A stretch of DNA of 64,000 bases from Escherichia phage vB_VIPECOOM01. The notes under the pieces were generated by a model, which was not told the origin of the DNA, searched no databases, and saw only the letters and a program-made list of their open reading frames with translations. The position numbers and the translations under genes are program-made. Location: sequence record OQ721909; one strand, given 5' to 3'. Of this stretch, positions 7,815 to 59,626 are shown one piece after another. The stretch's first letter is position 1. Each line of letters starts with the position of its first letter.

Positions 7815-8285
7815 TTAATCATGTTTCCACACCCCATCGGTATTTGACCAAAGCCGTTGATTATCTGATCCTCGCCACAGCTTTTTGGTCGGAAGATTTT
7901 TCTCATACTTCCCATCAATAATAACATCAACATATTTAAGCATTTCTAGTTGTTTAATATCTTCAAACTTATATCCTGTCCACAACCAAATGCTTTTATT
8001 CGGATAAAGATTTTTTACCGTTTGAACAATGCAATGAACAACATCTCGGTTATCAGGATAAAGAGGGTCTCCTCCAGTTATAGTTAATCCTTCTATATAA
8101 TCATTATTCAAACATTCAATTAATTGTTCTAGTGTTTCACCAGTGAATGGAACGCCATTTCTAGCATTCCATGTTGATTTATTATAACACCCTTCGCATT
8201 TATGCAAACAACCTGTAACGAAAAGAACGACCCTGCATCCAGGGCCATTCACAAAATCGCAGGGATAAAATCTATCGTAATTCAT
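7815..8285 (-). CDS. nrdG: Anaerobic ribonucleotide reductase activating protein (radical SAM)
   Basis: 156 aa; Cys-rich CLHKCEGC cluster; ATGA overlap with nrdD. Confidence 0.9.
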   Translation of the reverse strand: MNYDRFYPCDFVNGPGCRVVLFVTGCLHKCEGCYNKSTWNARNGVPFTGETLEQLIECLNNDYIEGLTITGGDPLYPDNRDVVHCIVQTVKNLYPNKSIWLWTGYKFEDIKQLEMLKYVDVIIDGKYEKNLPTKKLWRGSDNQRLWSNTDGVWKHD

Positions 8286-10099
8286 TGGTGTTTAACCCTA
8301 TGCATGATTTCTTTATTTTTGCCGAGATTAAATCCGCGTTCATTCGGATTTCCCAAATAACCACAAGTTCTTCTTATTGTGTTCATCTTTTTAGGATCAG
8401 TTTCTCCACAAATAGAACAAACAAATCCGTTTTCAGTAGGAGTCATTTCATGGGTACTTCCACATGTAAAACATTTATCTACTGGCATGTTAACGCCAAA
8501 ATAATCTAAATGTTGTGCAGCATAATCCCATACAGCCTCAAGACCTTTTAGGTTATTTTTCATATCAGGAAGTTCAACATAAGAAATGTGACCACCTGTC
8601 GCAATGAAATGATACGGGGCTTCGCGAGAAATCTTTTCAAACGGAGTGATATTTTCTTCTACTGAAACGTGGAAACTGTTAGTGTACCAGCCTTTATCAG
8701 TAACGTCTTTTACACTTCCATATTTTTCGGTATCAAGTTTGCAGAAGCGATAGCACAGGTTTTCAGCAGGAGTAGAATACAAGCTAAAAGCAAAACCGGT
8801 TCTTTCAGTCCACTGCTTAAGACGAGCATTCATTTTAGTTAAAATTTCTTGCCCAATATCACGACCGACAAGGATATTCAATTCGTGAATACCAATGTAT
8901 CCTAAAGACACTGAACTTCTACCGTTTTTAAATAACTCAATTATATCATCATCAGGTTTAAGACGAACCCCGAATGCACCTTCTTGGTAAAGAATAGGAG
9001 CAACAGTCGCTTTAACTCCTTTTAAGGAACTAATTCTACACATCAAAGCTTCAAAACACAAATCCATTCGTTCATTGAACAATTCGGCAAATTTCTGTTC
9101 ATTGAACTGTGTTCCAATATAAGAATCTAACGCAATACGAGGAAGATTCAGTGTTACAACGCCAAGATTATTACGTCCATCAAGAATTTCATTACCAGTC
9201 GAATCTTTCCATACACTTAAGAAACTGCGGCAACCCATTGGAGAAACAGGAATAGATGAACCGGTGATGGCTTTATTGTTCTTAGCCGAAATGATGTCAG
9301 GATACATTCTTTTGCTTGCACACTCTAGAGCAAGCTGCTTAATATCATAGTTCGGATCGTCTTTATAAAGATTAACACCTTCTTCAACGAACATAACAAG
9401 TTTAGGGAAAATAGGAGTTATCCCGTCACGACCAAGACCTTTAATACGATTTTTCAGAATTGCTTTCTGAATCATTCGTTCAGTCCAGTCAGTTCCCGTG
9501 CCAAATGTAATTGTTACAAAAGGCGTTTGTCCATTTGAACTAAAGAGAGTATTTACTTCATATTCATAAGCTTGGAACGCATCATATACGTCTTTTTCTG
9601 TTTTAGACTGGGCGTAATTCAACGCATCAGCGATTTGCCATTTTTCTGCATCCTCAATATGTTTTGCATAGGTGCGTTTAACATAAGGAGAAAGTACTTT
9701 GTCTACATTCGCAAAAGTCGTTCCGCCGTATTGATGGGAAGCAACCTGTGCAGTAATTTGTGCCATAATTGCAGTAGCAACGCCGATTGATTTAGGAGTT
9801 TCAATCTGTGCATTACCGAGCTTAAATCCGTTCTCAAGCATTCCTTTTAAATCTACTAAACAGCAATTAGTAAATGGAAGAGCAGGAGAATAATCAATAT
9901 CATGGAAATGAATAATTCCGCTTTCATGCGCTTTCATAATAAAAGACGGGACCATATTTTTGGCAATGTGTTTAGACACAATACCAGCCATAAGGTCCCG
10001 TTGAGTTGGAAAAACACGAGAATCTTTATTAGCATTCTCGTTTAAAAGGTCTTTATTAGTTTTATGAATCAATCCTTCAATTTCTTTTTCAATTGTCAT
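8282..10099 (-). CDS. nrdD: Anaerobic ribonucleoside-triphosphate reductase (class III, glycyl radical)
   Basis: 605 aa uninterrupted ORF; C-terminal Zn-ribbon cysteines and glycyl-radical region; no intron. Confidence 0.95.
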   Translation of the reverse strand: MTIEKEIEGLIHKTNKDLLNENANKDSRVFPTQRDLMAGIVSKHIAKNMVPSFIMKAHESGIIHFHDIDYSPALPFTNCCLVDLKGMLENGFKLGNAQIETPKSIGVATAIMAQITAQVASHQYGGTTFANVDKVLSPYVKRTYAKHIEDAEKWQIADALNYAQSKTEKDVYDAFQAYEYEVNTLFSSNGQTPFVTITFGTGTDWTERMIQKAILKNRIKGLGRDGITPIFPKLVMFVEEGVNLYKDDPNYDIKQLALECASKRMYPDIISAKNNKAITGSSIPVSPMGCRSFLSVWKDSTGNEILDGRNNLGVVTLNLPRIALDSYIGTQFNEQKFAELFNERMDLCFEALMCRISSLKGVKATVAPILYQEGAFGVRLKPDDDIIELFKNGRSSVSLGYIGIHELNILVGRDIGQEILTKMNARLKQWTERTGFAFSLYSTPAENLCYRFCKLDTEKYGSVKDVTDKGWYTNSFHVSVEENITPFEKISREAPYHFIATGGHISYVELPDMKNNLKGLEAVWDYAAQHLDYFGVNMPVDKCFTCGSTHEMTPTENGFVCSICGETDPKKMNTIRRTCGYLGNPNERGFNLGKNKEIMHRVKHQ

Positions 10100-27729: not shown

Positions 27730-28191
27730 TCATTGAGTTTTAATTACTGCTTTAGAAGCCTTTCCCGGTAAACGACGACTGTTGATAATTGCCATCCTGC
27801 ACTGAAGTGACGGGTCTTTGAACTTCGCATTAGGTTTACAAACTGTAAATCCAAGCCAAAGATTTCCATCAGTGATTTCTAAACGCCCAGGACGATATTC
27901 AACCCCATCAATAAAATCCTCGTCAATGTCAGGACGCGGAGGCATATTCAGGAATTCATTAACTTCTAAAACATGGTCTTTTATTTTATGGAATAATTCA
28001 AAAACATATGTCTCATCAATCTCCCGTTGAATTGCACGATCAAGAAGATGCTGAGAATATTTTAGATGAAACGATGAGACTCCTGCTGCTTTTGATGCCT
28101 CACGAATCTCATTGTTAATTTGACGAAACTCCGACTCAAAGTGACGACGGAGTTTATTTCGACGGATAAAAACTTCTGTGTTGATAGTCAT
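27730..28191 (-). CDS. regB: Endoribonuclease RegB
   Basis: 153 aa; near-identical to recalled T4 RegB. Confidence 0.93.
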   Translation of the reverse strand: MTINTEVFIRRNKLRRHFESEFRQINNEIREASKAAGVSSFHLKYSQHLLDRAIQREIDETYVFELFHKIKDHVLEVNEFLNMPPRPDIDEDFIDGVEYRPGRLEITDGNLWLGFTVCKPNAKFKDPSLQCRMAIINSRRLPGKASKAVIKTQ

Positions 28192-28217
28192 GTTATTCTC
28201 CTCTTAACTGATAGAAA

Positions 28218-28248
28218 AATTATACCACAGTCAAGAGGAAAAGTAAAC
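28218..28248 (-). promoter_or_regulatory. early promoter upstream of regB
   Basis: GTTTAC -35, TGGTATAAT -10 on minus strand. Confidence 0.6.
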
Positions 28249-28251
28249 AAG

Positions 28252-28572
28252 TTATTCTTTAAATCTAATCAATTTATTCATAGACTTTGTAACTTCTGCA
28301 CGAACCTCATGCAGGTTTTTAAGCTGTTCAAGACGCTGCTCATAGTAAGCAATTTCATCTTCTTCGAGACAGTCCTGTGAATCTTCTTTAAGATAACGCG
28401 CATAGTCCTGGAAAGCTTTACGGACTACTTCCTGGAAGTCATCAAGACTTTGAATTTTCTTAGGAGCAACAGATACACGACGAGGGGCAGTATAATACTC
28501 ATAACCAAACCCTGCGCTTAATTGAGCCATTAATATTTTTCCTCTGGTTGGAATACCGCGCGACAAGCCCAC
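28252..28572 (-). CDS. hypothetical protein
   Basis: 106 aa ORF; start may be internal Met at 28530. Confidence 0.5.
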
Positions 28573-28796
28573 ATACTAGCTTCTTTGAGTTTCGTTTTAG
28601 CAATAGTTAGCTGATCGAGGCTTTCAGCATAATTCTTTGCGAATTCGTAGTCTTCGCAATTATCTAGTGCTTCCCAGAATTCATCGTATAAAGCGTCAAA
28701 GATAAGTCCTAAACGAACTTCAGCATCTTTGATAGCATTCACTTTACCGATTTTCTCTTCAGTATGTGGCTTATAACCCTTAATATCTTCAATCAT
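28530..28796 (-). CDS. hypothetical protein
   Basis: 88 aa ORF. Confidence 0.5.
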
Positions 28797-29010
28797 ATTT
28801 TACTTCCTCACCAGTACCCAAATCATATTCAACTAAACGAATAGGTTCATGAATGCCATATCCCTGAACAGAAATTTCTGTCGTAGGATAAATTCCACTA
28901 ATATCACCCATGTTCCATGCTTCATTAAATTGCTGTTCGCCTGAATTACTAAACCACTCGGCGAAAGCATTTAGCACATCTTTAGAACCTTCAATAATTA
29001 TCTTTGCCAT
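28789..29010 (-). CDS. hypothetical protein
   Basis: 73 aa ORF. Confidence 0.5.
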   Translation of the reverse strand: MAKIIIEGSKDVLNAFAEWFSNSGEQQFNEAWNMGDISGIYPTTEISVQGYGIHEPIRLVEYDLGTGEEVKYD

Positions 29011-29378
29011 TACAAACTCTCAGTAAAGGTACGAGCGATAACGTCGCGCTGCTGTTCCGGAGTCAGAGAGTTAAAGCGAACTGCATAACCGGATACACGG
29101 ATGGTCAGCTGCGGATATTTTTCCGGATGCTTAACTGCATCTTTCAGAGTTTCACGACGCAGAACGTTAACGTTCAGGTGTTGACCACCTTCAATTTTAA
29201 CTGTAGGTTGTGTTTCAATTTCAATTTCAATTTCACGAGCATGCAAACCATAGAAAATTTCTGGGTCTACAAAAGAGTCCTCTTTAAAAGTTTTAGAGAC
29301 AATAATTCGTACTTGAATACCATCTTCAAAATAAATAGTACCTTTATGTGTGCCTTCAAGAATTTGATATGCTTTCAT
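29010..29378 (-). CDS. Autonomous glycyl-radical cofactor (GrcA/YfiD-like)
   Basis: 122 aa; C-terminus [15 protein letters not shown]...[29 protein letters not shown] is the glycyl-radical domain of GrcA/PFL; host-like GC-rich codon usage. Confidence 0.88.
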
Positions 29379-29384
29379 ATAACC

Positions 29385-29714
29385 TCAATTAGAAAATAAA
29401 TTTATCCAAGACTGTTCTTTAATTAAAAATGGCTCAGAATCATATGCCATTAAACTTTGGGTGATTAGTCCTTTAAAAGGCCCATCAATAAATTCCATGG
29501 TAAAATATGGAATTTTATTCATTAATCTTGCATTAGGAGCAGTACACAAAACTCTGCATCCTTTGAATACGCCTTTTTGTAATTTGTATTGCTTAGGATA
29601 AAATTCGCTCAAGACGTTGTTATTTGCCAAAATTTCAAAATGATTCACCAATTTATTTTTAATAGTTTTTGGCGAAAAATAAAGATATTCGAAAAGTTGC
29701 GTATCTGTCATCAT
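29385..29714 (-). CDS. hypothetical protein
   Basis: ORF trimmed to ATG that forms ATGA overlap with upstream stop. Confidence 0.5.
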   Translation of the reverse strand: MMTDTQLFEYLYFSPKTIKNKLVNHFEILANNNVLSEFYPKQYKLQKGVFKGCRVLCTAPNARLMNKIPYFTMEFIDGPFKGLITQSLMAYDSEPFLIKEQSWINLFSN

Positions 29715-30253
29715 TGCATTCCAATTACGAAAAACTGTGGACGAGTAATACCACCAATGCAACATTTACTATTGCAGCAGTGTTGCACAGTTTCAATATG
29801 AATATCGTAAATTTTATCCATATCAGGAGATTTAACAGGCTCATCGATTATATACAAAATCCGCGAAAGCGATAAACCTCTGAACTTGCTACCTCTATTA
29901 CCAACAAAACTACGGACAGAATCAGTAAATAAACGGAATCGAATATCATCATTAGAATAGCGTGAAAATTCTTTTTTAATGTGGCCCGCAGAAATTTTAG
30001 CGTAAGCTGAAGTATTAGAAAGAACAATAACTGTTCCACCGTCATACAACCAATTAGCGGCAAAATTAGTTACTGCAGTTGATTTACCGGATTGACGTCC
30101 ACCATCTAGTCGAAGTGTGCAGTATTCTTTAAATAAATGTGGCGAATCAGGTACATAAAATCCACTATTACAAATTTCTTCTACTCTAGCATCAGAATGG
30201 TGTGTAAAAGCATTCATCAGGGATAGATAAGGACCAGTTAAAAATGTTCTCAT
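29711..30253 (-). CDS. hypothetical P-loop NTPase
   Basis: Walker A GGRQSGKST and Walker-B-like ILYIIDE; trimmed to MRTFLTG Met with GAGAGAAT RBS. Confidence 0.55.
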   Translation of the reverse strand: MRTFLTGPYLSLMNAFTHHSDARVEEICNSGFYVPDSPHLFKEYCTLRLDGGRQSGKSTAVTNFAANWLYDGGTVIVLSNTSAYAKISAGHIKKEFSRYSNDDIRFRLFTDSVRSFVGNRGSKFRGLSLSRILYIIDEPVKSPDMDKIYDIHIETVQHCCNSKCCIGGITRPQFFVIGMQ

Positions 30254-30330
30254 TTTATTCTCTCTAAATTTGGGCCATTCCATGGCGCATGAATTGTCCA
30301 TTTCTGTATTTACCCATTACCGCACTTGGG
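30254..30330. repeat. repeated structured intergenic element, copy A
   Basis: ~75% identical to 31205-31283 over ~70 bp. Confidence 0.5.
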
Positions 30331-30398
30331 CTCGACCTTATTACAGGTTGGCGGGAATCCCTCATAGAATCATGAGGTCCAGGTTATTCCCATGTTAT

Positions 30399-30815
30399 TT
30401 AAATGTAAATATTTTTGCCGTAATACTTATACCAGTGCGGCTTCATTAAAATTTTTTCATCGAGTCGTTGTTGACTCAACCTAATAGCTGATTTGCATGG
30501 ATTATAATCATTTTTCCATTCTGCTGGAATATCGCTGATGTCAGGAACTTCAGTATCTTTTATACTAAACCCACGTTTTAAGCATTCCATTATAATGTCT
30601 GATTGACGCTTTCGCAAAAATTCTAACTTGTCGTAAAAGAACGTAACATGACCAGAACCTAAAATAAACTCGGAAGATATTTTAAAATCTTTAACCCGCT
30701 TACCATTTGCCACATGTTTACGAACTATACCAAAAACACGTGGCAATTCACGGTATTCTGCGATTAAATGCTGATCAGCAAGTTCAGATACTAAAGTCAA
30801 ATTAATACGAGTCAT
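30399..30815 (-). CDS. denV: Endonuclease V (pyrimidine-dimer DNA glycosylase)
   Basis: 138 aa; N-terminal [17 protein letters not shown] matches recalled T4 endo V. Confidence 0.93.
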
Positions 30816-30837
30816 TTTACCTCTCCAAGTAATTATG

Positions 30838-30870
30838 AATATACTATCACAATTCTAGGAGAAAGTAAAC
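30838..30870 (-). promoter_or_regulatory. early promoter upstream of denV
   Basis: GTTTAC -35, TGTGATAGTATAT -10 on minus strand. Confidence 0.6.
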
Positions 30871-30872
30871 TG

Positions 30873-31175
30873 TTATTTACCTTTAATTACTTTAGCTGCT
30901 TCGATAGCCGCTTGCTGAAGGTCATCCATAGACATACCGAATTTAGAAGCAAAGTTATCAATTTTCTTTTCGACAGCATTCAAAGGCTTGGCCTGTTTAC
31001 CTTCATTAGCGCCAGGAAGAGCGAGAATACGCTCTTTGTCAATATAAAGGCTTACAAGTTTCTTACGGTCTTTATCGGACAAATCATGAAATGAATGGGC
31101 CTTTTTATTTATAGCGGCTTCTAATTTACCTGCACTCACTCGCGCTTCAGCAATAAATTCTTGATATGTTTTCAT
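30873..31175 (-). CDS. ipII: Internal protein II (capsid-packaged)
   Basis: 100 aa; N-terminal MKTYQEFIAEA capsid-targeting leader. Confidence 0.85.
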   Translation of the reverse strand: MKTYQEFIAEARVSAGKLEAAINKKAHSFHDLSDKDRKKLVSLYIDKERILALPGANEGKQAKPLNAVEKKIDNFASKFGMSMDDLQQAAIEAAKVIKGK

Positions 31176-31204
31176 ATGTTTCCTTTAAATGTAAATAGTT
31201 TTAT

Positions 31205-38396: not shown

Positions 38397-38472
38397 TGGT
38401 CGAGGCAGTAGGGATCGAACCTACGACCTAGGACTTAGAAGGTCCTTGCTCTTCCTTCTGAGCTATGCCCCG
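38397..38472 (-). tRNA. tRNA-Arg (anticodon TCT)
   Basis: Cloverleaf read by hand: anticodon loop CTTCTAA, T-arm GGTTCGATCC, CCA encoded. Confidence 0.85.
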
Positions 38473-38476
38473 TAAT

Positions 38477-38552
38477 TGGGGTGACCGATGGGAGTCGAAC
38501 CCATGACTACGAGAATCACAATCTCGAGTTCTACCAACTGAACTACGGCCAC
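38477..38552 (-). tRNA. tRNA-His (anticodon GTG), no encoded G-1
   Basis: Anticodon loop TTGTGAT; discriminator C then CCA; closely resembles E. coli tRNA-His body. Confidence 0.75.
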
Positions 38553-38636
38553 ATTAATACCTACTCCAACAATCAAGATGTCTTCACACGAAATTAAGAG
38601 AAGAGTGATCAGTTCAACCCCGATAATCGCGTCAAG

Positions 38637-38652
38637 TAGATATTAATGTGAC
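38637..38652. repeat. perfect 16-bp palindrome TGTGACAATTGTCACA in tRNA spacer
   Basis: Self-complementary; matches CRP-type TGTGA-N6-TCACA half-site arrangement. Confidence 0.5.
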
Positions 38653-38656
38653 AATT

Positions 38657-38731
38657 GTCACAAATTTGGCGGACGTGATAGGATTCGAACCTATAACCAA
38701 TCGCTTAACAGGCGATCGCTCTGCCATTGAG
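38657..38731 (-). tRNA. tRNA-Asn (anticodon GTT)
   Basis: Anticodon loop CTGTTAA; T-arm GGTTCGAATCC; CCA encoded. Confidence 0.8.
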
Positions 38732-38735
38732 CTAC

Positions 38736-38822
38736 ACATCCAAATTGGTGGGGAGTGATGGAGTCGAACCACCCGAGTCGCAATGACAATGGATTTACAG
38801 TCCACACCGCTACCTCTACGGG
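38736..38822 (-). tRNA. tRNA-Tyr (anticodon GTA), long variable arm
   Basis: 87 nt; anticodon loop CTGTAAA; perfect 7-bp acceptor stem; CCA encoded. Confidence 0.8.
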
Positions 38823-38835
38823 ATAACTCCCCTTA

Positions 38836-38910
38836 ATTCTTAATTTGGTGGCCCTGGGTGGAATTGAACCACCATCTGGCGATTATGAGTCGCTTGCTTG
38901 AACCTTCCAG
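38836..38910 (-). tRNA. tRNA-Ile2 or Met (anticodon CAT)
   Basis: Anticodon arm GCGACTCATAATCGC as in E. coli tRNA-Ile2; CCA encoded. Confidence 0.75.
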
Positions 38911-38929
38911 CTACAGGGCCAAATTTTTC

Positions 38930-39412
38930 TTATTTTATGTAATATTTATTTAAAAACTTTCTAGCTTGAGTATGGCTAACATTTATAGCGTTTGCATAAT
39001 TTTTAATAAAACCTCGTTCATCCATATTAAAATTTTCTAATATTTTTAATCGTCTAATTATCTCATCTTGGCTTAAGGTACTTGCATTATTTTTAGAAAT
39101 TTTTTCTAAAGACTGCACTGAGTGTTTTCGACCATTAAAATTAAAATTTTTAGGTTTTGGAGGAAATCTATCATTTAGTCTCGCATCTTTTGTATTTTGA
39201 TTATTAGTTGCGCAATATATGTTATTTAATGAGTATGGTCCTTTATCACCAAAACGACACATACAGTATTCATGACCCTTTCTTCCACGCTTATCATAAT
39301 TTCCCGTTGATTTCCACCAATTCAACCACTCATCAAAAGTTAAATTCCATTCAATGTTTCTACGTATAGCAGAATTCCGCTGAGAAATATATTTTGCATA
39401 ATCTTCTTTCAT
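38930..39412 (-). CDS. putative HNH-like (His-Me finger) endonuclease inserted between tRNA subclusters
   Basis: 160 aa basic protein; HEYCMC ... NNIYCATNNQN spacing suggestive of HNH; position equivalent to T4 segB. Confidence 0.4.
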   Translation of the reverse strand: MKEDYAKYISQRNSAIRRNIEWNLTFDEWLNWWKSTGNYDKRGRKGHEYCMCRFGDKGPYSLNNIYCATNNQNTKDARLNDRFPPKPKNFNFNGRKHSVQSLEKISKNNASTLSQDEIIRRLKILENFNMDERGFIKNYANAINVSHTQARKFLNKYYIK

Positions 39413-39459
39413 CGCAAATTTCTCTACTTATTGCATACACTAAGCTAAATCAGCAAAAC

Positions 39460-39549
39460 TGGCGGAGGCGATAGGATTTGAACCTATGAGTCGCCGGAGC
39501 GACTGCCGGTTTTCAAGACCGGTGCATTAAACCACTCTGCCACGCCTCC
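39460..39549 (-). tRNA. tRNA-Ser (anticodon TGA), long variable arm
   Basis: 90 nt; anticodon loop CTTGAAA; CCA encoded. Confidence 0.85.
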
Positions 39550-39551
39550 AG

Positions 39552-39625
39552 TCTCCGCGGCAGGATTTGAACCTGCGACATTCTGCTCCCAAAGCAGACG
39601 CTCTACCAAACTGAGCTACACGGAG
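39552..39625 (-). tRNA. tRNA-Pro (anticodon TGG), CCA not encoded
   Basis: Anticodon loop TTTGGGA; 3' end abuts tRNA-Ser (dimeric precursor arrangement). Confidence 0.8.
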
Positions 39626-39635
39626 TAAATTAAAT

Positions 39636-39709
<74 letters not shown>

Positions 39710-39714
39710 AAATT

Positions 39715-39801
39715 TGGTGCGAGAAGTGGGACTCGAACCCACAAGGAAATCATTCCGCAGCATTTTAAGTGCTGTGCCTTTACCAATTTGACCATTCTCG
39801 C
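39715..39801 (-). tRNA. tRNA-Leu (anticodon TAA), long variable arm
   Basis: 87 nt; anticodon loop CTTAAAA; CCA encoded. Confidence 0.85.
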
Positions 39802-39802
39802 G

Positions 39803-39875
39803 CTGGGAATAAAGGACTCGAACCTTTGCATCTAGCAGTCAAAGTGCTATGCCTTACCAACTTGGCTAATTCCCA
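39803..39875 (-). tRNA. tRNA-Gln (anticodon TTG), CCA not encoded
   Basis: Anticodon loop CTTTGAC; 3' end one nt from tRNA-Leu 5' end (dimeric precursor). Confidence 0.85.
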
Positions 39876-57420: not shown

Positions 57421-58079
57421 TGAGTTTACTTAATAATAAAGCGGGAGTTATTTCCCGCTTAGCAGATTTTCTTGGTTTTAGAACTAAGAAAAATGATATT
57501 TCGGTTATGAATAATCAGCCAGTAGGCGCTGTAACAATTTCACAAATAGCAAAAGGTTTTTATGACCCAAATGTAGAATCTGCTATCAATGATGTTAGAA
57601 ATATGGCAGAGCAACAGGTTGGAGCTGTATTAGTTAATATAAGCGGCGTATCTCCTACTGGCGTGCAACAAACAGACTATTGGTCATTTGAAGGAACCGT
57701 TACTGATACTTCAGCCAAACCAGGTGATCCAGTTATTGTTAACATGTTTGGTATTCCAGTTAAAGCTACTAATGGAATGACTTCAATCGAATTTACTAGT
57801 GCCGTTAGAGTAGCTCTACAGGAAATGGTTGTAAAATTTATTGCAATTGATTCATTTGAAGACCATCCTACAATAGGAAATAAAATACAAGTTAAGTATT
57901 TAGATAACCAAGAACATATCTTAGAACAATACTCTGATAAAGGAATTACTTTCAAACAGGAAATAATTTCTCCTTCTAAACCTGGGTACGGAACTTGGCA
58001 ATTATTAGGTGCGCAAACTGTTACGCTAGATAGTCACACACAACCTACAGTATTTTATTATTTTGAGAGAGTAGCATGA
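57420..58079 (+). CDS. 11: Baseplate wedge protein gp11 (short tail fibre attachment)
   Basis: 219 aa from ATG in TAATG overlap with gp10 stop. Confidence 0.85.
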
Positions 58080-59626
58080 GTAACAATACATATCAGCACG
58101 TATCAAATGAATCAAAATATGTTAAATTCGATCCTACTGGATCGAATTTTCCTAACACTGTTACGACAGTGCAGTCTGCATTATCAAAAATAAGTAATAT
58201 CGGCGTAAATGGTATTCCTGATGCAACTATGGAAGTTAAAGGAATAGCAATGATTGCGTCAGAACAAGAGGTTTTAGATGGAACTAATAATTCTAAAATC
58301 GTTACGCCAGCTACATTAGCAACAAGGCTATTATACCCAAATGCTACTGAAACTAAATATGGTTTAACGCGTTATTCAACAAATGAAGAAACGTTAGAAG
58401 GCTCAGATAATAATTCATCAATAACGCCGCAAAAACTGAAATACCATACTGACGATGTGTTCCAAAATAGATATTCGTCTGAGTCATCAAACGGGGTTAT
58501 TAAAATATCATCTACACCTGCAGCTTTGGCCGGTGTAGATGATACTACGGCAATGACTCCATTAAAAACCCAAAAACTTGCAATAAAATTAATTTCACAA
58601 ATAGCTCCGTCAGAAGACACTGCATCAGAATCTGTGAGAGGTGTAGTTCAATTATCTACTGTTGCGCAAACTCGTCAAGGAACTCTCCGCGAAGGATATG
58701 CAATTTCTCCGTATACCTTTATGAATTCTGTTGCAACACAAGAATATAAGGGTGTTATACGTTTAGGAACACAATCGGAAATTAACAGTAATTTGGGAGA
58801 TGTTGCAGTAACGGGTGAAACACTAAATGGTCGAGGAGCTACTGGTTCTATGCGTGGAGTAGTTAAATTAACGACGCAAGCCGGTATTGCCCCTGAAGGT
58901 GATAGTTCTGGAGCATTAGCATGGAACGCAGATGTAATTAATACTCGTGGTGGACAAACTATTAATGGTTCTTTAAATTTAGACCATCTTACAGCAAACG
59001 GAATTTGGTCGCGCGGTGGAATGTGGAAAAATGGCGATCAGCCAGTTGCGACAGAACGTTATGCATCAGAAAGAGTTCCGGTTGGGACTATTATGATGTT
59101 TGCAGGTGATTCAGCACCTCCAGGTTGGTCTATGTGTCATGGTGGAACCGTGTCAGGTGACCAATTTCCTGATTATAGAAACGTAGTTGGAACAAGATTT
59201 GGTGGTGATTGGAATAATCCTGGTATTCCTGATATGCGAGGTCTTTTCGTCAGAGGAGCCGGCACAGGCGGTCATATTTTAAATCAACGAGGACAAGATG
59301 GTTATGGAAAGGATAGACTGGGCGTAGGATGTGACGGAATGCATGTTGGTGGTGTTCAGGCACAACAAATGTCATACCATAAACATGCTGGTGGTTGGGG
59401 TGAATATAACAGAAGTGAAGGCCCATTTGGCGCGTCAGTTTATCAAGGATATCTTGGAACTAGAAAATATTCCGACTGGGATAATGCTTCATACTTCACT
59501 AATGATGGATTTGAATTAGGTGGACCAAGAGATGCTCATGGTACACTTAATCGTGAAGGATTAATTGGTTATGAAACTAGACCATGGAATATATCATTAA
59601 ACTATATTATTAAAGTTCATTACTAA
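58076..59626 (+). CDS. 12: Short tail fibre gp12
   Basis: 516 aa; conserved N-terminus [13 protein letters not shown] and C-terminal [13 protein letters not shown]. Confidence 0.9.

Follow-up and report, generated by a model that had tools for sequence, protein, structure and literature searches.

How a gene of a T4-type phage came to carry a 3' half that is nearly identical to a chromosomal gene of its host, and what the encoded protein contributes to infection, are questions raised by the open reading frame (ORF) between vs.7 and vs.5 of Escherichia phage vB_VIPECOOM01 (OQ721909). The stretch of 64,000 nucleotides analyzed herein is referred to as the window. In the original prediction, this ORF was described as a GrcA/YfiD-like spare-part protein, the C-terminal half of which had been captured from a host relatively recently and the N-terminal half of which was phage-specific. 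Based on the present results, we consider it probable that the ORF is a Tequatrovirus vs.6 gene encoding a cofactor that rescues pyruvate formate-lyase (PFL), and that this gene is an old homologue of grcA, the structured domain of which was converted by the host gene.

The ORF begins with ATG and encodes a protein of 122 amino acids, the C-terminus of which matches that quoted in the original prediction (Table 1). A direct reading of the sequence revealed the ribosome-binding sequence GAGG a few bases 5' of the ATG, and the TAA stop codon and the ATG of vs.5 have one base in common. The protein matched the Pfam family Gly_radical (PF01228) at residues 62-103 (E=2.3e-18; score 67.1, cut-off 22.2) and PHROG 1209 over its full length (E=3.8e-62; residues 1-122 on profile positions 1-121 of 121). 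The best PDB match was E. coli GrcA (6owr_A; E=7.7e-40), with residues 22-122 corresponding to GrcA 28-127, and residues 60-122 aligned with the C-terminus of PFL (697-759; E=4.2e-26). The C-terminal 60 residues had been predicted to be essentially those of E. coli GrcA; 59 of the 60 are identical, and the sole difference, E79K, was found in this phage alone among the phages sampled (T4T has GAA at this codon). The radical glycine, Gly97, is present in the motif RVSGYAV. The score against the NCBIfam equivalog TIGR04365 was 146.3 bits, which is under the 170-bit cut-off (E. coli GrcA, 233.9), because the N-terminal half is diverged; the alignment to this model begins only at residue 22.

The gene order denV-vs.8-vs.7-vs.6-vs.5-vs.4-vs.3-regB is the same as in the T4T record, in which this gene is named vs.6. 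We concluded that the window belongs to a Tequatrovirus and that the ORF is the previously known T4 gene vs.6 (Y06I). In T4, the same gene (PHROG 1209) occupies the same position and carries the same host-identical 3' tract over the first 171 nt of the domain, and the present protein is distinguished from its product only by A23V, E79K, and the insertion of two residues (EI). Escherichia phage vB_VIPECOOM03 has an identical gene (100%), and those of many T4-type phages are approximately 96% identical. The EI insertion results from an additional GAAATT unit, which is common to this phage and OQ721911 and probably arose by replication slippage. The public labels of vs.6 vary and include "hypothetical protein", "pyruvate formate-lyase", "formate acetyltransferase", "2-ketobutyrate formate-lyase", and "autonomous glycyl radical cofactor". 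PHROG 1209 is annotated as "unknown function" although the function was published in 2001, and many GenBank records list the protein as hypothetical.

Table 1. Positions in the window of vs.6, its parts, and other genes discussed in the text.
Feature	Position	Strand	Description	Basis or remark
vs.6 / Y06I	29010..29378	-	Autonomous glycyl-radical cofactor of 122 aa (14 kDa), resembling GrcA	Pfam, PHROG, and PDB matches; T4 gene order
Phage-type AT-rich 5' half of vs.6	29195..29378	-	30% GC	No E. coli nucleotide match (blastn)
(GAAATT)x3	29217..29234	-	Encodes EIEIEI	One 6-nt unit more than T4 and other sampled relatives
Proposed conversion tract	29020..29194	-	175 nt, codons 62-120; structured glycyl-radical domain	174/175 nt identical to E. 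coli grcA
Lys79 codon	29142..29144	-	AAA; GAA to AAA, E to K	Only mismatch to E. coli grcA inside the tract
Gly97 codon	29088..29090	-	Predicted radical-bearing glycine (RVSG*YAV, asterisk after the glycine)	Aligned with the RVSGYAV glycine of E. coli GrcA and PFL
Phage-type 3' end of vs.6	29010..29019	-	Last three codons GAG AGT TTG and stop	E. coli has GAA AGC CTG, same residues
regB	27730-28191			
acb2-like ORF (vs.4)	28530-28796	-		Pfam Acb2_Tad1_hairpin (PF24729), E=9.2e-20; position of T4T vs.4
vs.7, mechanical ORF	29385-29765	-	126 aa	55-nt overlap with vs.8
vs.8	29711-30301			
denV	30399-30815			Pfam Pyr_excise
nrdG	7815..8285	-	Radical-SAM activase of NrdD	Pfam Fer4_12 (1.4e-48) and Radical_SAM
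nrdD	8282..10099	-	Anaerobic ribonucleotide reductase; other glycyl-radical protein of the phage	Pfam NRDD (1.8e-171) and Gly_radical

Several observations were made on the surrounding genes. Judging from its Pfam match and position, the second gene downstream of vs.6 appears to encode the anti-CBASS sponge Acb2. Since the PHROG profile aligned with the vs.7 ORF only from residue 18, the true start of vs.7 is probably an internal ATG. A scan of 28000-31200 for promoters and terminators detected sites no more numerous than in shuffled sequence. NrdD and NrdG, which the original prediction had also attributed to this phage, were both found in the window by Pfam.

The composition of vs.6 changes abruptly within the gene. 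The GC content of the tract is 48.6%, that of the 5' half is 30.4%, and that of the window is 35.1% (sd 4.5 in 175-nt windows). This places the tract in the top 0.5% of 175-nt windows; the other windows in this class fall in tRNA genes or in a single large ORF. GC3 rises from 0.13 in the 5' half to 0.42 in the tract. The phage-codon-usage score of the tract (0.538; mean 0.694, sd 0.061) is in the lowest 0.5% of 59-codon segments, and all five of its Leu codons are CTG, which accounts for 5% of the Leu codons of the phage. Therefore, the elevated GC content and host-like codon usage that had been predicted for this region were both observed, and were stronger than claimed.

The similarity to the host extends to the nucleotide level, with one mismatch to E. 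coli grcA in 175 nt. A blastn search of 5426 complete E. coli genomes matched grcA in every one, at 97.8% over gene nt 185-369. The junction between vs.6-type and E. coli grcA-type sequence is sharp and located at gene nt 184/185, at TTGAAGG; the DNA upstream of it is barely alignable. When the full 64-kb window was compared with the same 5426 genomes by megablast, the tract was the only E. coli-identical stretch, and the matches besides it were those of tRNA genes to some plasmid-like records. Over the first 171 nt of the domain, no difference from E. coli grcA is present in T4T, phage 107, Yersinia phage fPS-90, or a Mosigvirus-type contig. At the 3' end, the last three codons of vs.6 specify the host residues with other codons, which fits an older conversion that has since drifted. 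The GAG codon among them sits at the annotated ribosome-binding site of vs.5 in phage 107. E. coli grcA itself is evenly composed (GC content of 0.47 in the N-half and 0.49-0.50 in the C-half) and is approximately 88% identical to its Klebsiella orthologue; therefore, the direction of transfer was from the host to the phage.

Other GC-rich spots are present in the window. Most of them belong to a cluster of 10 tRNA genes (Arg, His, Asn, Tyr, Met, Ser, Pro, Gly, Leu, and Gln) at 38397-39875 on the minus strand. Positions 38717-38838 (tRNA-Asn/Tyr) matched approximately 260 plasmid-like records of roughly 100 kb each in the E. coli collection, with 80-90% identity. Another GC-rich stretch (58980-59402, plus strand) lies inside an ORF of 516 amino acids (58076-59626). 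A megablast search of the E. coli genomes yielded no match to this stretch, and, thus, it is not host-identical DNA.

The 5' half of vs.6 is 85-95% identical among approximately 650 T-even phages. We compared the N-halves of 15 phage proteins from diverse lineages with those of 10 bacterial GrcA proteins using hhalign, and obtained a probability of 98.2% (P=5e-14) over 60 columns; identity between the phage and GrcA N-halves was 18% in the profile alignment. Therefore, the entire phage gene is a homologue of grcA, and its N-terminal half, which had been regarded as phage-specific, is a diverged GrcA N-half. Relatives in other phages have similar features. Karamvirus (T4-like phages of Enterobacter) has the same kind of N-half and a complete, AT-rich C-domain with 76-78% DNA identity to E. 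coli grcA, and the C-domain DNA of Krischvirus, T5-like, Aeromonas, and Vibrio phages is 66-78% identical to E. coli grcA. Judging from these alignments, the versions in Karamvirus, Krischvirus, and T5-like, Aeromonas, and Vibrio phages represent the unconverted phage gene, and demonstrate that the protein may be conserved without nucleotide identity being forced. Both ends of the tract in vs.6 are intragenic and lie within homologous sequence, which is a signature of gene conversion and not of the capture of a fragment. Accordingly, the recent origin of the 3' half from the host, as proposed in the original prediction, was retained, whereas its capture was better described as gene conversion inside an existing grcA homologue.

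The limits of the tract coincide with a structural division of the protein. YfiD residues 1-60 are disordered and aid binding to cleaved PFL and its activation, and residues 61-127 are structured and insert into PFL (PMC8683613). The tract spans GrcA-aligned residues 67 to 125, inside the structured half, and the unconverted part of vs.6 corresponds to the disordered half.

On the authority of Wagner et al. 2001, PMC8683613 recognizes just two proteins as validated "spare parts", namely T4 Y06I and E. coli YfiD (GrcA). It describes, from the same source, that PFL activase installs a glycyl radical on these proteins and that activity is restored to PFL cut by oxygen at Gly734. The identification of the ORF product as a spare-part protein of the GrcA/YfiD type is supported by its Gly_radical domain, Gly97, and match to 6owr_A, and by the rescue of cleaved PFL by its T4 orthologue Y06I (PMC8683613), for which the function suggested in the original prediction has already been established. 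By analogy with T4 Y06I, the host activase PflA would place the radical on Gly97 of Vs.6, and the C-terminal domain of Vs.6 would replace the C-terminal piece of PFL lost at Gly734, thereby returning activity. The production of acetyl-CoA/ATP and formate would then be maintained in infected cells under microaerobic conditions, and the phage would benefit from PFL remaining active in oxygen-exposed, fermenting cells. Class III ribonucleotide reductases, to which NrdD belongs, use formate as their reductant. If formate serves in this manner, vs.6 would also support the NrdD/NrdG system of the phage, which would be a closer tie than the support of anaerobic metabolism at two points envisaged in the original prediction.

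Phages of another host genus carry a corresponding tract. In six Jiaodavirus (Klebsiella) phages, the GC content is 0.35-0.36 in the N-half and 0.55-0.58 in the tract. When a single genome of each bacterial species was screened with a 23-mer specific to the Jiaodavirus tract, 16 loci were found, including grcA of K. pneumoniae ATCC 13883. With this K. pneumoniae gene, the first 158 nt of the domain in these six phages showed an identity of 93.7-99.4%, the closest phage sharing 157/158 nt, and with E. coli grcA an identity of 85-88%. For the Tequatrovirus tract, the identity was 87.7% with K. pneumoniae and 99.4-100% with E. coli grcA. Jiaodavirus and Tequatrovirus have their 5' junction in common, while the 3' junction is at approximately nt 158 in the former and nt 173-176 in the latter of the 183-nt domain. 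Since the Jiaodavirus tract is Klebsiella-like, the Tequatrovirus tract is E. coli-like, and their 3' junctions differ, we concluded from these comparisons that at least two separate host-to-phage conversions of the same gene occurred, each from the phage's own host. The Jiaodavirus phages KP01 and AM_K3 have N-halves without a difference in 180 nt and tracts that are 96.8% identical over 158 nt. Thus, the tract diverges more between Jiaodavirus phages than the N-half, which is the reverse of the pattern in Tequatrovirus and Mosigvirus and is expected if the donors were different Klebsiella alleles.

Some sequences from other phages were also noted. An IMG/VR Jiaodavirus contig, the copy closest to Klebsiella, differs by one base in a T-run approximately 50 nt upstream of the tract, and the N-half is thereby put out of frame; either a sequencing error or a pseudogene may be the cause. 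The tracts of Slopekvirus and Pseudotevenvirus are 80-85% identical to E. coli and 77-82% identical to K. pneumoniae, and no donor was found among the few host genes compared. Aeromonas phage BUCT695, a non-T4 phage of Grimontviridae, has a grcA-like gene directly downstream of nrdD (409-783 of the locus analyzed), with a GC content of 0.34 in the N-half and 0.49 in the C-domain, the latter of which may be a similar host patch.

The next question is whether conversion recurs. Approximately 640 genomes in the phage collection carry the tract at an identity of at least 95%, and the identity of the 5' half spreads down to 85%. A comparison of eight Tequatrovirus and five Mosigvirus genes revealed fixed differences at 10 of 177 N-half sites and at 0 of 174 tract sites (Fisher p=0.0017), and third-position divergence was 22% in the N-half versus 6% in the tract. 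Differences in the tract are mostly singletons around the E. coli sequence. Sites specific to each genus are retained 11-19 nt upstream of the tract and within approximately 10 nt downstream of it. Since these sites survive, the spread of the tract between phages needs crossovers in those few bases each time, whereas conversion by the host must stop at the tract edges because homology stops there. Moreover, 5 of 23 distinct phage tract variants coincide with SNPs of just three variant E. coli grcA alleles, a count that mutational hot spots at third codon positions could inflate. The sample for recurrence comprised 13 genes of E. coli phages, six Jiaodavirus genes, one K. pneumoniae genome, and three variant E. 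coli alleles.

T4 destroys host DNA early in infection, which should limit the host DNA available as a template and counts against frequent conversion. Despite this destruction, we are inclined to favor recurrent conversion, and not a few single events, as the process that would keep the structured domain of vs.6 matched to host grcA. With a similar, moderate degree of confidence, we attribute to recurrent conversion the distribution in which the tract is of the E. coli type in Tequatrovirus and Mosigvirus, of the Klebsiella type in Jiaodavirus, and absent from Karamvirus. The first conversion would create approximately 175 nt of perfect homology, which itself would favor more conversions.

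The tract of Escherichia phage vB_EcoM_Nami (421-783 of the locus analyzed) is only 94% identical to grcA of the E. coli reference, and three of the four SNPs that characterize the divergent E. coli VE-T9 allele are also found in it. It has two unusual substitutions, N69H and I93S. A donor of this tract was sought among the E. coli genomes, and the best match was only 95.9%. Either a donor belonging to another Escherichia lineage or errors in the sequence record may account for this.

A rival to recurrent conversion is that each phage group received the host sequence once, before its genera separated, and that inheritance or recombination between phages then accounts for the present distribution without a further part for the host gene. 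T-even phages recombine readily in mixed infections, the sampled Tequatrovirus and Mosigvirus tracts all center on one sequence, and the 3' junction is common to all six Jiaodavirus phages, all of which agree with a single transfer. However, plain inheritance predicts similar synonymous divergence in both halves of the gene, which is at odds with the fixed and third-position differences described above, and spread between phages requires the narrowly placed crossovers on both sides of the tract every time. Furthermore, tract variants in phages match host SNP alleles, and pairs of Jiaodavirus phages with identical N-halves bear different Klebsiella-like tracts. Therefore, we regard a single transfer per phage group as unlikely.

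The capture of a host grcA fragment and its fusion to an unrelated, phage-specific N-terminus, as originally envisaged, is compatible with the abrupt change in composition and identity at gene nt 184/185 and with the lack of a nucleotide match between the 5' half and E. coli. We find it very improbable because the N-half is homologous to GrcA N-halves, because Karamvirus, Krischvirus, and T5-like relatives with the same N-half already own a complete, diverged glycyl-radical domain, and because the tract stops short of the stop codon, inside homologous sequence. A different role of the protein has also been proposed. The conservation of vs.6 in six of six T4-like genomes with nrdD, for which a role in nucleotide metabolism was suggested (PMC1524935), and the position of the BUCT695 homologue directly after nrdD would suit a spare part for phage NrdD, or a function in nucleotide metabolism, rather than for host PFL. 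We rejected Vs.6 as a spare part of NrdD because no significant BLASTP similarity was found between Vs.6 and the NrdD of the window (E>8). On the other hand, Vs.6 matches the C-terminus of PFL at 4e-26 and the GrcA domain at 59/60 residues, T4 Y06I rescues PFL in vitro according to PMC8683613, and the domain tracks host grcA and not nrdD; we give little credence to a role centered on NrdD or nucleotide metabolism. The high expression and strong codon bias of grcA, together with the high conservation of the domain protein in all phage lineages, might instead evoke a convergence of codon usage. Convergence was rejected because the nucleotide identity is only 71-78% in other phage lineages with an almost unchanged domain at the protein level, and because the identity of 174/175 nt includes every synonymous site. 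An artefact of assembly or contamination is countered by the presence of the tract in more than 600 independently sequenced phage genomes, T4 and T2 included. We attach a negligible probability to convergence or an artefact as the source of the host likeness.

Under the preferred reading of gene conversion by host grcA, the phage would have possessed an old grcA homologue over its whole length, the 3' 175 nt of which were overwritten by homologous recombination with the chromosomal grcA of the host. Presumably, the T4 recombination machinery copies from host DNA or its fragments. These conversions would have been independent in different T4-like genera, each with the gene of its own host, and are probably recurring. 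Their effect would be to keep the phage domain identical to that of the host.

The vs.6 gene and its biochemical function are already known, at textbook level for T4. Similar to Vs.6, E. coli GrcA/YfiD (TIGR04365, IPR011140, PDB 6OWR) is a small standalone protein with a disordered N-half followed by a glycyl-radical domain containing RVSGYAV; however, the phage N-half is strongly diverged and shorter. The genomic settings also differ: vs.6 is in an early-gene cluster of a virulent phage, whereas E. coli grcA adjoins ung and eamB. A host-like patch flanked intragenically by diverged phage-type homologous sequence, by which a mosaic gene is recognized, was found in vs.6 for both Tequatrovirus/E. 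coli and Jiaodavirus/K. pneumoniae. The psbA and psbD genes of cyanophages (Sullivan et al. 2006, PMC1484495) are likewise copies of host metabolic genes with host-derived patches, that is, mosaic auxiliary metabolic genes, and psbA offers the nearest published parallel to the vs.6 mosaic. In contrast to these genes, the vs.6 patch is essentially host-identical (99-100%) and corresponds to a single defined structural domain. It recurs with an unchanged 5' junction in phages that infect two host genera, and the phages concerned are T-even, a group known for degrading host DNA. Our literature search found no description of the vs.6-grcA nucleotide mosaic or its host specificity, and a mention in the older T4 literature is possible.

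The present results have practical implications. A 2026 typing study selected grcA as a PCR/qPCR marker for Straboviridae (PMC12845203). Such assays could amplify host DNA if the primers fall in the 3' half of the gene. Similarly, filters for host decontamination could clip the vs.6 tract from phage assemblies.

The value added by the present study is the description of a clean, probably recurring host-to-phage gene conversion that is confined to one structural domain. The tract offers a natural reporter of host-to-phage recombination that is simple to sequence and may also reflect the recent hosts of a phage. If recurrent conversion is correct, the tract would record recent host use. In this strictly lytic phage, 175 nt are those of a host chromosomal gene, and they appear to be renewed from whichever host is used.
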